34,131 nucleotides of DNA from a virus (lineage: Duplodnaviria; Heunggongvirae; Uroviricota; Caudoviricetes), in the IMG/VR virus record IMGVR_UViG_2541047807_000011. One strand, written 5' to 3'. Numbering within the stretch: the stretch's first letter is position 1; each line of letters starts with the position of its first letter. Below are positions 24,001 to 27,000 of this stretch, piece after piece. Made by a program: the position numbers.

Positions 24001-27000
24001 TAGCCATTCGCCATACCGGGATTTCTTTCTGCTGCGTGACAACAAAAAGCGCCCCGGCAAACGCGCCCACCACAACCCCGAAATCGGTATTGGTGAGAAG
24101 GCCAAACACACTGGCACCACCGATGGTGACTGCCACAGCTCCGCCGCCTGATAAGGGTTCAGACATGAGTTTCTCCTGTAAATCTGAGCCACTGACGGCC
24201 CGTAAATAACACCCGGTCAAAGGCACAGAATGACTTTTGCCGGGCGCTATCCCTTAAGGTGTCTTGTGGTCTGAGTGGACAGGGTAAACGGTATGCTGTG
24301 GTGGGTACTGCTGGGGGTGTTCAGCACCCCCAGCAGGTTGATTATCTGGATGGGTTAAAGAGAAGCGAGTTTTAATGGTGGCTTATAACATGCCCGCGCC
24401 AGCAGGTTAGCTCTTTCCACGGCATTACGCATTTCCCGTTCCGCGTCAATCATTCTGTTTACGGCTGACAGCACTTCATCATGATTCGTTACTGATTCCG
24501 GGCTTTGGGCCTGTTTCGCCAGGTAACTGGATAAACTGCACATTTCAGCATGTCGGCGACGGGCTGCATCCCGGGCCTTGTCTGAAAATGCGGTATATTC
24601 ACCGAGCACTGCATAGTCGATATCGGTGTCAGAACGCATCATTTCGTGTCTCCTTTTTTCTGAGGCCCATTAATCAAAAAGCCCCACCTGGGTGGGGCTT
24701 TTCAGCGAAGTCTGTTTTTGTCGTCGGTGTATCAGCTGCCATGCGTACCGGTCTGAAATGCCGTAACGGGGACAGAGCAGTGCCAGCGCCTGCCGGTGTG
24801 AGCATCCGCCTTTTACATGCTGCTGTAAATCAGCCATAAAACGGGTGTTACGCAGGGCACGTAACGCATGATCGCAACGGGGAATGTAAAACGGTGCGCC
24901 GCCAAGAAAACGGATCAGTTTGTTGATTTCGTCTTCGGTCAGCACGTCATGTAACAGGGCATGGACACCGCCGGTGCGTTCGGCGTGTACGCCGGTTTTA
25001 CCGCTTAACGTCACGCCACCAAAAGAACGAATCAACCGGGTCAGGGCGGGGAAGCCAATCACGCTAATCAGTTGCTGCACGGAATCGGGCAGCAGTGCCT
25101 GCGCATCGCGAAGATCTGTTTCACTGAAGGTCTGCATGATGGCGTCTCCGGTAGTAACTTACTGTTATTATAGCCATACATGATCGCCTGTACAGACCAC
25201 AAAAAAAGCCCCTGCATGGCAGGGGCTAAACTAAGTCTTATTTAGTCAGGTCTAGAATAACCAGGCCTTTTCTTGATTCTATTTGCTCTTTACCAAAAAC
25301 AAACGAATCAAAACAATCCATACGATATTCTTTAAACTGATTTCTTGAACGCTCCAGAAACTGCCTGTCATCCCTGATAACGTTAGACCAGTAATCCTGT
25401 AGCTGGTTTTTCATTTTTATGCAGGAACCATACACAGGATCAAGCGGGTCGTCCCCCAGTTTACTGGCCTGTTCATCCAGTTGTTTTAGTCCTTTTTTGA
25501 TATTCTTCCACTCTTCAATATTTCCCTGCTGATACTGCGATGCCGCTTCTGGCATAGCGTAATAAAGTTTTCCACTTTCCCGAAGCATCTGTTCAGCCAA
25601 TGGCTTCATATCCTGATAACGTTTCAGTTCCTTTTGCGCCTGTTCCTCTGTCTGTGCCAGCACAGAACAAGAGAAAATAACCCCTACTAAACAAAACAAC
25701 CATTTTTTCATCATTGATTTCTCCTTCTTGAATCTTTAACCAGCGCCACCATCACTCCAAAAAGCTGTTCATCCGTCAGCCATTCGATCACATGTTGCTT
25801 ATACATGTGAGATGCCAGTCCTTCCGCATACGCCCAGGAACGACCGGCATCAGCCAGCAACGCTTCAATTTTGGATAATATCGATTTTCTGCTCATTGCA
25901 ACACGGGGGCGGCGACCTTTACCGGCGGGTGCCTTGCGCGGAAATCCCTGTTCATGCATGTATTCCCGGATGATGCGCAGTTCATCGAGGTTGCAGCGTG
26001 TGGTGCTGGTTTTACCGGTCAGGCGGGCCAGCGTCTGGCGATAAAGGACATCATCCCACCCCAGATACGCCTGACCGGCTTTAATGGCTCCGATCATCTT
26101 TTTCAGCATGTTTGTTATCCTCAAAACGCACGGTAAAACGTGAAACGCCAATCCCTGACAAGAACGCAGCGGCACGGTCAAGAGACAGCCATGTCTTGTA
26201 ATCGCCACGGCGTTCCTGTAGAAAATAGGACACCCCGGCGCGGCGATTCACAGCGAATAGATGATACACACCACCGAACCGCTGCACGACAAACTCATCC
26301 ACGCCACCGCTTTCAGCCTGTTGCCTGAAAGCTGTCATTCCGATTTGTTCAATCTTCATAATGACCAAAACATCACTTTTGGCAGACCAAAACATATGTT
26401 TTGGTCTGCTATTGGTTATTATTAAATTACTTTGCGTTAGTGTGATTCTTCCAGCGATTTTGTGTCGCGCTTCTGTTTCGCCAGACACCGTAAAAACGAA
26501 TAGAGGACCACTCCCTAAAACCAAGATATCTATAGCGAACAACAAGTCGATTTGAGATACGGATAAGTTGCCCTGGCTTTGCTATTAGCAGTCTTGCCTT
26601 ACGGTTTTTCATCATTTTGCTCTCCTGCGTTTCTTTGCTTCGCGTCGTGCAGCTGCAATACCGGTATGGCGCTTTGGTGCCGGGATGATGCTGTCAGCCA
26701 TCAGGGCATGCGGCTTTGCAATTAGCGCAGAAGCCCAAAAACGAGTCGGGTATGGTAATAAACCGATAAACGCTACACGCATTACGCACCTCCTTTGGCG
26801 TCAATATTTACAGCCTGGCAAGCCTCGTTGAGCACCCAGTCAACCGCGTCTTTCCATGCTCCGGTTTCGACTGGCGGATTCTCACACTTTACCTGTTCAT
26901 AGAAACGCACTGCTTTAACTAGTCCTTCCGGCACTACCGACGCTGGCGGGGCAGCATAAAGCTCATGCATTCCATCAGGTAGCAAGTGACCTACATACTC

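Follow-up and report, generated by a model that had tools for sequence, protein, structure and literature searches.

The question raised by the locus described here is how a Mu-like phage with a single activator of the Mor/C family brings about the transcription of its late genes, and how the gene of this activator is itself controlled. The locus is located in IMG/VR virus record IMGVR_UViG_2541047807_000011, a stretch of 34,131 nucleotides (nt) of a virus of the Caudoviricetes that was analysed at its full length and is referred to below as the window. It comprises a gene of 155 amino acids (aa), here called mor (25137-24670, minus strand), the predicted promoter P_mor in front of it, a terminator-like hairpin in its last codons (hairpin 2) and the partner gene orf95 behind it. 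All long open reading frames (ORFs) of the window are on the minus strand, and their order is that of a Mu-like transposable prophage of Escherichia coli. Gene identity, uniqueness, conservation, selection at the nucleotide level and the recurrence of a promoter motif with fixed geometry were computed directly. The results favour, with somewhat better than even confidence, a sole Mor/C activator that would do the job of Mu C, would be expressed from a mor-orf95 unit of its own and would be subject to a translation-sensitive attenuator at the 3′ end of its gene.

The 155-aa ORF matched the Pfam family Mor (PF08765) with an E-value of 1.6e-6 and 28.5 bits (cutoff 24.9) as well as PHROG 836, 'late transcriptional activator', with an E-value of 3.5e-42; its RefSeq name is already 'Mor transcription activator family protein'. 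Among solved structures, the nearest relative by sequence is Mu C, whose chains 9l0x and 9vw8 were matched by a subfamily profile (E 9e-4). The GG-x3-YIP linker of the family was present in the alignment as LGGAPFYIPR, corresponding to LGGGQVYIPR in Mor and LGGRQFYIPC in C. Residues G79, Y84, I85 and P86 were invariant in 17 of 17 aligned sequences, while G80, although common to Mor and C, was variable within the subfamily. The predicted monomer model contains helices at residues 89-109, 114-125 and 129-145; fold searches with this model were uninformative and did not recover Mor or C. At the 3′ end of the gene the codons CAG GTG GGG CTT TTT GAT (24690-24673, minus strand) encode QVGLFD, a putative beta-clamp-binding motif, and QxxLF was found at the extreme C-terminus of nearly all of about 35 homologues with 35-100% identity. 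The N-terminal clamp motif Qx[DE][LM]F was absent from the protein, which begins with MQTFSETDL. In Mu, QPDLF of the C protein binds the beta-clamp and is required for late transcription, and the motif was reported family-wide in the forms of an N-terminal Qx[DE][LM]F and/or a C-terminal QPDLF-like sequence (PMC12867686).

Candidate targets of the activator were revealed by a recurring motif. The 11-mer GCTGAACACCC occurs in three exact copies, all of them on the coding strand (24325-24315, 16172-16162 and 4247-4237), while about 0.02 exact copies in 68 kb would be expected by chance according to our own arithmetic and 1.3 matches with at most one mismatch were expected from shuffled sequences. 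With two more common bases the core extends to the 13-nt sequence GTGCTGAACACCC. The first copy (core 24327-24315, hexamer TACCCT 24286-24281) is part of the candidate promoter P_lys (24336-24281, minus strand) before the holin-endolysin cassette. The second (core 16174-16162, hexamer CATCAT 16133-16128) is part of the candidate P_I (16174-16128, minus strand) before the gene of a Mu-like I protein with ATG at 16120, which matched PF10123 (Mu-like_Pro) with an E-value of 9e-100. The third candidate (4249-4203, minus strand; core 4249-4237, hexamer CAGACT 4208-4203, ATG 4196) is located between the gp45-like and the GP46-like baseplate genes.

Each of the three window sites has a hexamer of the form nAnnnT that occupies +36 to +41, counted from the G of CTGAAC, and begins 26 nt past the 11-nt block CTGAACACCCn. 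The same hexamer spacing was found in at least nine non-identical promoters of relatives, and the lysis promoters of every relative examined carry TACACT, TATACT, TATTCT, CAGTAT or CACAAT at +36 to +41. The spaced hexamer was absent from all six chance matches of the core inside coding regions. In prophages of Xenorhabdus, Photorhabdus and Morganella and in a Salmonella-like phage the core reads CTGAACCCC(T/G)TCAAC, which contains a TGAA-N4-TTCA dyad. The centre of this dyad (TGAA-CCCC-TTCA in the relatives) lies 31.5 nt 5′ of the hexamer, i.e. at -43.5 if the hexamer occupies -12 to -7, and the published sites of Mor and C are dyads centred at -43.5 (PMC2582627, PMC4390567). The three GTGCTGAACACCC sites are thus candidate Mor/C-dependent late promoters, and because the core motif recurs with fixed geometry, the 155-aa protein is probably a C-like late activator.

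P_lys additionally contains a perfect 12-bp inverted repeat, CTGCTGGGGGTG-CTGAA-CACCCCCAGCAG (24336-24308), with the core in its loop, a folding energy of -25.7 kcal/mol (z = -5.0) and, on the coding strand, no U-run; it might mark an RNA 3′ end or extend a protein site. The relatives, too, have a hairpin at their lysis late site or just 5′ of it. In other E. coli prophages P_lys has an alternative allele, in which the hairpin CACCCCGC-CGCC-GCGGGGTG stands directly 5′ of the core. At P_I and the third candidate (16133-16118 and 4208-4194, minus strand) the ATG follows the hexamer by 6-7 nt and no Shine-Dalgarno sequence is present, so perhaps these transcripts have no leader, or perhaps translation starts at other codons.

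As the sequence-only reading of the window had stated, mor is its only visible member of the family. Family hidden Markov models were built in versions that included or omitted Mu Mor and C; among all 769 six-frame ORFs of the window, mor was their sole match and the runner-up had an E-value of 0.5. A second homologue just outside the window, which that reading had named as evidence against itself, was looked for in tcmA_3, a close relative that is fully resolved and flanked by the host genes melR and melA; none was found between melR and melA. Beyond the span of the window tcmA_3 contains a divergent c-type repressor gene at one end and a tail-fibre segment at the other. The same reading had left the place of an early-to-middle activator to be filled. 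Such an activator is not required by the family, as several sister lineages join their single mor to gemA, with which it overlaps or abuts without a terminator or promoter between the two (L046 from called genes and Pfam; L008, L012, L013 and L019 from sequence). A two-tier early-to-late cascade with one activator therefore seems common in the family, and the insertion of a terminator and a promoter before mor is specific to the clade of E. coli, Salmonella and Edwardsiella. Another arrangement was observed in four prophages of Xenorhabdus, Photorhabdus and Morganella (L009, L010, L014 and L015), in which a late-type promoter, CTGAACCCCTTCAAC ... AATACT, lies about 90 nt 5′ of mor, next to a strong terminator hairpin in whose 5′ arm its start is predicted. 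The full terminator would be encountered by transcripts arriving from upstream, whereas those begun at the late-type promoter would lack half of the stem, which suggests positive autoregulation with terminator bypass for these mor genes.

In the window, the terminator before mor is T1 (25227-25200, minus strand), which was predicted by a terminator scan and by folding. Its stem-loop AGCCCCTGC-CAT-GCAGGGGCT at 25227-25207 has nine pairs and is followed by U7 at 25206-25200; the folding energy is -17.6 kcal/mol (z = -2.6). It had been taken for the terminator of the moron gene upstream. That a terminator precedes the promoter was confirmed, and its assignment to the moron was not, since the moron-less prophages L001 and L003 keep the T1 hairpin and T-run directly behind GemA. 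T1 also occurs behind differing cargo genes; in further relatives, again with other cargo genes, a different hairpin and T-run take the T1 position. The predicted T1 is accordingly a terminator of the early-operon backbone. The moron, a cargo gene of 158 aa (25714-25238, minus strand), has a start that overlaps the stop codon of GemA (26208-25711, minus strand) as ATGA and therefore rides as cargo on the early operon. Its protein has a signal-peptide-like N-terminus and no family match. The slot between gemA and T1 is occupied by this 158-aa gene, a 112-aa gene, genes of 174-175 aa or no gene, depending on the prophage, and looks like a hotspot of cargo insertion into the early operon. Homology between the prophages breaks at the T-run (25206/25227) and again just past the Shine-Dalgarno sequence of the next gene (about 24646), where a mosaic junction falls directly behind the orf95 ribosome binding site; therefore promoter, mor, hairpin and Shine-Dalgarno sequence travel as one module. 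Both the block of P_mor and hairpin 2 persist over mosaic boundaries and between lineages, to an extent that exceeds chance.

P_mor (25194-25167, minus strand) was predicted as a sigma-70-type promoter from a promoter scan and from conservation. A perfect TATAAT (6/6) about 30 nt upstream of the gene had been noticed before and is located at 25172-25167, separated from the ATG by 29 nt. The previous statement that no good -35 exists was too strong, and 'weak -35' is a fair description: TGTACA (4/6) at 25194-25189 is conserved, is spaced by 16 bp from TATAAT and matches T--ACA without the key TTG. With a total of 10/12, P_mor ranks first among the promoter-like sites of a 16-kb stretch, which number only four (12.6 in shuffles). 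The start site is predicted near 25160, and the Shine-Dalgarno sequence of mor, GGAG at 25149-25146 (minus strand), was read from the sequence 8 nt 5′ of the ATG. The block CTGTACA-N3-GATCA-N4-TGGnTATAAT, including a GATC in the spacer (25185-25182), is invariant in the E. coli, Salmonella-like (66% aa identity) and Edwardsiella (54% aa identity) lineages, whereas the preceding hairpin and the 5′ untranslated region differ among these three.

The strongest of the alternatives concerns this promoter. P_mor could be an activator-dependent middle promoter, as the sequence-only reading had proposed. Transcription would then need an early protein with no relation to Mor that binds the CTGTACA...GATCA block or a position upstream of it, and a three-tier cascade would be kept. 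The missing TTG and the 16-bp spacer speak for this, as does the conservation of CTGTACA-N3-GATCA beyond what a -35 alone needs; moreover, a strong terminator separates mor from early transcription, and a late activator would have to stay silent in lysogens. On the other side, no Mor/C-type dyad was found at -43.5 of P_mor, where positions -51 to -36 are taken up by the 3′ half and T-run of T1, and the sequence of the upstream hairpin is variable. No second Mor/C homologue is present, mor joined to the early operon suffices in the sister lineages, and the conserved block covers the -35 and the spacer, which would be the usual place of repressors and not of activators. We consider a middle promoter unlikely, although deserving attention.

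Several candidate control elements of P_mor were examined and rejected. T1 as its activator site, in the manner of Mu Pm, is centred near -57, which is too far upstream by about 13 bp, and its sequence varies. A repressor or Ner operator was discarded because P_mor has no k-mer of 7 nt or more in common with the early operator region of L022, which also counts against an early binding protein at a middle promoter. Matches to a LexA site (CTGT-N8-ACAG) or a CRP site were poor by eye. No further CTGTACA occurs in the window, and no CTGAAC core with at most one mismatch is present near P_mor. The T-run of T1 spans about -46 to -40 and might serve P_mor as an UP-like element.

The second control element of mor is located at the other end of the gene. 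Hairpin 2 with its U5 (24703-24676, minus strand) was predicted by folding as a terminator-like attenuator in the last 11 codons. Its GC core (24698-24681) is extendable to 24703-24676, and the RNA reads AAAAGCCCCAC-CCAG-GUGGGGCUUUUU-GAU-UAA with seven GC and four A:U pairs around the loop CCAG. The folding energy is -21.2 kcal/mol (z = -3.1), and none of 200 shuffles folded as well. The U-tract (24680-24676) is followed by GAU and by the stop codon UAA (24672-24670), so that TAA lies 3 nt beyond the U-run. A hairpin with U5 just before the TAA, as described in the sequence-only reading, was thereby computed as a fold, and its non-stop geometry holds as well: transcript ends 7-9 nt past the stem would fall before or inside UAA. 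The 3′ arm and the U-run coincide with the codons of QVGLFD. Hairpin 2 has the attributes of an intrinsic terminator, namely a GC stem, a short loop, a U-run and conservation beyond coding, and sub-threshold Rfam matches at this place are terminator ends of small RNA models. A simple terminator scanner did not list it, which we ascribe to the extension of the stem into A:U pairs that leaves four T in the 8-nt tail.

Downstream, orf95 (24642-24355, minus strand; 95 aa, phrog_7152, no assigned function) starts 27 nt past the mor stop codon behind a conserved Shine-Dalgarno sequence (AGGAG, 24654-24650, minus strand), and the promoter scan found no promoter-like site in the gap. Homologues of orf95 with 34-44% identity were found in four lineages, always between mor and the lysis promoter. 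Because this conserved gene follows without a promoter-like site between, transcription must pass hairpin 2. The proposal of an attenuator with read-through into the 95-aa gene and the lysis operon is therefore retained for the 95-aa gene; a dependence of the lysis operon is dropped, because the lysis genes have their own candidate late promoter behind orf95 and are independent of read-through at hairpin 2. Precedents exist for a terminator in such a position. In a study of tR2 positions in E. coli, terminators within a few bases of a stop codon or in the late part of an ORF were repressed by the translating ribosome and worked again once translation was uncoupled, and termination inside an ORF yielded non-stop RNA (Li et al. 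2016, PMC4824070); bioinformatic surveys cited there have also found terminators that overlap the ends of genes. Hairpin 2 is most likely a translation-sensitive attenuator.

Against this stands the possibility that hairpin 2 is an efficient terminator of a monocistronic mor transcript, in which case the stop-less RNA would be translated and its product tagged by transfer-messenger RNA, the activator would be kept low, and orf95 would be served by rare read-through or an unrecognised start. The canonical look of seven GC and four A:U pairs followed by U5, the Rfam matches to terminator ends and the predicted 3′ ends before UAA are all compatible with it. However, orf95 homologues always adjoin mor with their Shine-Dalgarno sequence conserved and no promoter-like site between, terminators so near a stop are almost fully repressed by translation in vivo (PMC4824070), and wasting most of the activator synthesis would be costly. 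Efficient termination is thus regarded as distinctly unlikely.

Hairpin 2 is under selection at the nucleotide level, as a structure of the RNA or of the DNA. Its stem codons are minority codons in this phage (CCC 17%, GGG 20% and CTT 10% of their families). For the three lineages with hairpin 2, the fractions of synonymous recodings that fold as well as the native sequence were 0.005, 0.004 and 0.014, which places the native energy in the lowest 0.4-1.4%; the same codon simulation gave 0.63-0.97 in three lineages without hairpin 2. Synonymous change affected 0-1 of the last 11 codons of mor versus 32-50% elsewhere in the gene (p = 0.009-0.019). In Edwardsiella an A:U pair is replaced by G:C in a compensatory double change that keeps the pair at the price of two amino acid replacements (T to A, V to A). 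Moreover, the unrelated lineage L012 (Intestinirhabdus) carries another strong hairpin in the corresponding position, for which none of 1000 recodings folded as well. The remaining lineages have no hairpin at that position, or a terminator 10-28 nt past the stop. It is very improbable in the face of these results that hairpin 2 is a functionless by-product of KSPTQVGLFD in GC-rich codons with Leu-Phe as the T-run, even if QxxLF, which the protein family needs, naturally gives G-rich and then T-rich codons and most lineages lack a hairpin here.

Other functions of this region were considered and rejected. As the binding site of an orf95 promoter, hairpin 2 has a centre-to-ATG distance of about 47 nt, which is too short for the -43.5 geometry plus a leader, and the sole -10-like string before orf95, ATTAAT, lacks the key A2, in line with the silence of the promoter scan in that gap. 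A Mor site is not matched either: the late sites have the arms GGGGTG/CACCC, and CCCCAC/GTGGGG in hairpin 2 forms their complement but not their reverse complement.

A further reading starts from the GATC in the P_mor spacer, which is kept in six of six lineages having P_mor. GATC is about 3-fold depleted in the window (36 observed, 113 +/- 10 expected from shuffles), and its densest cluster, with four sites in about 316 bp (24870-25185), falls on mor and its promoter. P_mor might be a timer gated by Dam methylation and replication that needs no protein and takes the place of the Mor step of Mu: it would be silent when fully methylated in the prophage and would fire on hemimethylated DNA from replicative transposition, while the terminator in the clamp-motif codons would let only ribosome-coupled transcripts yield untagged, clamp-competent activator. 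If true, late transcription would be tied to replication twice, via the promoter and via the clamp. This idea is held to be highly doubtful because the GATC is inseparable from the conservation of the whole P_mor block.

Under the preferred attenuator model, the early operon (ner-A-B...gemA and the cargo gene) would end at T1, and P_mor, directly behind the T-run of T1, would start the mor-orf95 transcript. A ribosome finishing mor would cover hairpin 2, the stop codon being 3 nt past the U-run. With close coupling of transcription and translation hairpin 2 would be unable to form and RNA polymerase would continue into orf95, while on uncoupled or untranslated RNA it would terminate and the stop-less RNA would be cleared by trans-translation. 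The attenuator would in this way set the ratio of mor to orf95 and limit untranslated read-through towards the lysis region. The 155-aa activator would then turn on the three late promoters sharing GTGCTGAACACCC, i.e. those of the lysis, I/head and baseplate-tail genes. Promoter activity, termination and read-through, the assignment of Mor to the sites and clamp binding are the parts of this model that we infer.

Several observations weigh against the model. The three window sites have no clear TGAA/TTCA dyad, the first and second showing GGGTG...CACCC instead, and their -10 hexamers are weak with 3-4 matches of 6. A near-consensus -10 together with a 4/6 '-35' could fire in the lysogen, where this would be harmful, so that the model misses some control of P_mor. 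The protein motif also constrains the 3′ arm and the U-run of hairpin 2, and part of the conservation is due to coding. Finally, hairpin 2 is limited to one clade (E. coli, Salmonella-like and Edwardsiella), and a single covarying pair supports its stem.

Around this locus the window is arranged as follows. A Ner-like repressor (34131-33895), a Mu-type transposase (33895-31853) and a B-like ATPase (31834-30941), all on the minus strand, are followed by small early genes up to GemA. Behind orf95, two holins and a GH108 endolysin precede the terminase, the portal, the Mu I protein, the tail and baseplate genes and the tail-fibre region; an N6/N4 DNA methylase is encoded at 22007-21267. Of 5426 complete E. 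coli genomes, 58 contain near-identical mor modules, with the laboratory strain E2348/69 of enteropathogenic E. coli (EPEC) among the carriers. An Rfam scan of the whole window gave no family at its gathering score. At the prophage end (window 1-2200) tail-fibre assembly genes are opposed to each other (plus strand 1-1088, minus strand from 1060 onwards), integrase/invertase fragments flank the same genes in a relative, and thousands of E. coli records match this segment, which is probably an invertible host-range segment like the G region of Mu. Among the early genes, a 77-aa ORF beginning with MHQDIKEYRAGN (29798-29565, minus strand) has no Pfam match; tcmA_3 has at about the same position a 77-aa gene named 'ANR family transcriptional regulator' in RefSeq. 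ANR proteins are negative regulators of AraC. The gene-poor early stretch between an Ead/Ea22-like gene and gemA contains a 14-bp inverted repeat, TGGCAGACCAAAACATATGTTTTGGTCTGCTA (26380-26411), and near it a weak promoter-like site (26446-26418, minus strand).

For Mu-like prophages of an uncharacterised family, the analysis yields a concrete map of regulation that can be tested and that consists of a C-like activator, three candidate late promoters with a defined core motif and the mor-orf95 unit. Moreover, a natural terminator that overlaps a stop codon as well as the codons of a functional peptide motif could be used for studies of ribosome-gated termination and of non-stop RNA.

Compared with Mu C, the protein belongs to the same Pfam family and has the same GG-x3-YIP linker, and its C-terminal QxxLF reads QVGLF where Mu C has QPDLF and Mu Mor has QPSLL. 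Candidate target sites precede the lysis genes and the I gene, as do Plys and PI in Mu, and the third site corresponds loosely to PP; the geometry of the relatives' sites fits a dyad at -43.5 with a weak or absent -35. Unlike in Mu C, identity is only 28-35%, an insertion of about 25 residues is present (roughly residues 38-62), the N-terminal QxDLF is missing, and the site core is TGCTGAAC(A/C)CC here and TTAT-N5-6-ATAA in Mu C (PMC12867686). The gene is the sole family member and has no Mor-dependent promoter in front; a mom gene and a fourth late promoter are also absent here.

With Mu Mor the gene shares the family and the position right after gemA, and with the Mor/Pm region a terminator-like hairpin and T-run that separate the early operon from the promoter following it. 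The Mu sequence behind the stop codon of mor is AAAGCCGGTTAATCCGGCTTTTTTT, a hairpin with T-run, and the hairpin in the P_lys region is reminiscent of this Mu hairpin between operons. Mu mor, however, is located within the early operon, and the promoter behind the hairpin is Mor-dependent, lacks a -35 and drives C, whereas here the terminator precedes the only gene of the family, the promoter has a conserved T--ACA, and the hairpin is both too far upstream and too variable for an activator site. The cascade thus appears to differ from that of Mu in having one activator with a sigma-70-like promoter before it, and nothing known from Mu is overturned.

The mor unit as a whole is a tidy and largely ordinary regulatory unit of a known kind. 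Hairpin 2 resembles the tR2-type terminators at stop codons and the pyrBI-type leader attenuator cited with them (PMC4824070) in having a hairpin and U-run in the ribosome footprint of the stop codon, in the read-through expected if transcription and translation are coupled and the termination expected if they are not, and in the stop-less RNA that termination would produce. It differs in that the terminator is natural, is located inside a phage regulator gene and consists of nucleotides that also encode a functional peptide motif; this use of the same nucleotides for clamp motif and terminator is a neat detail and not a new principle.

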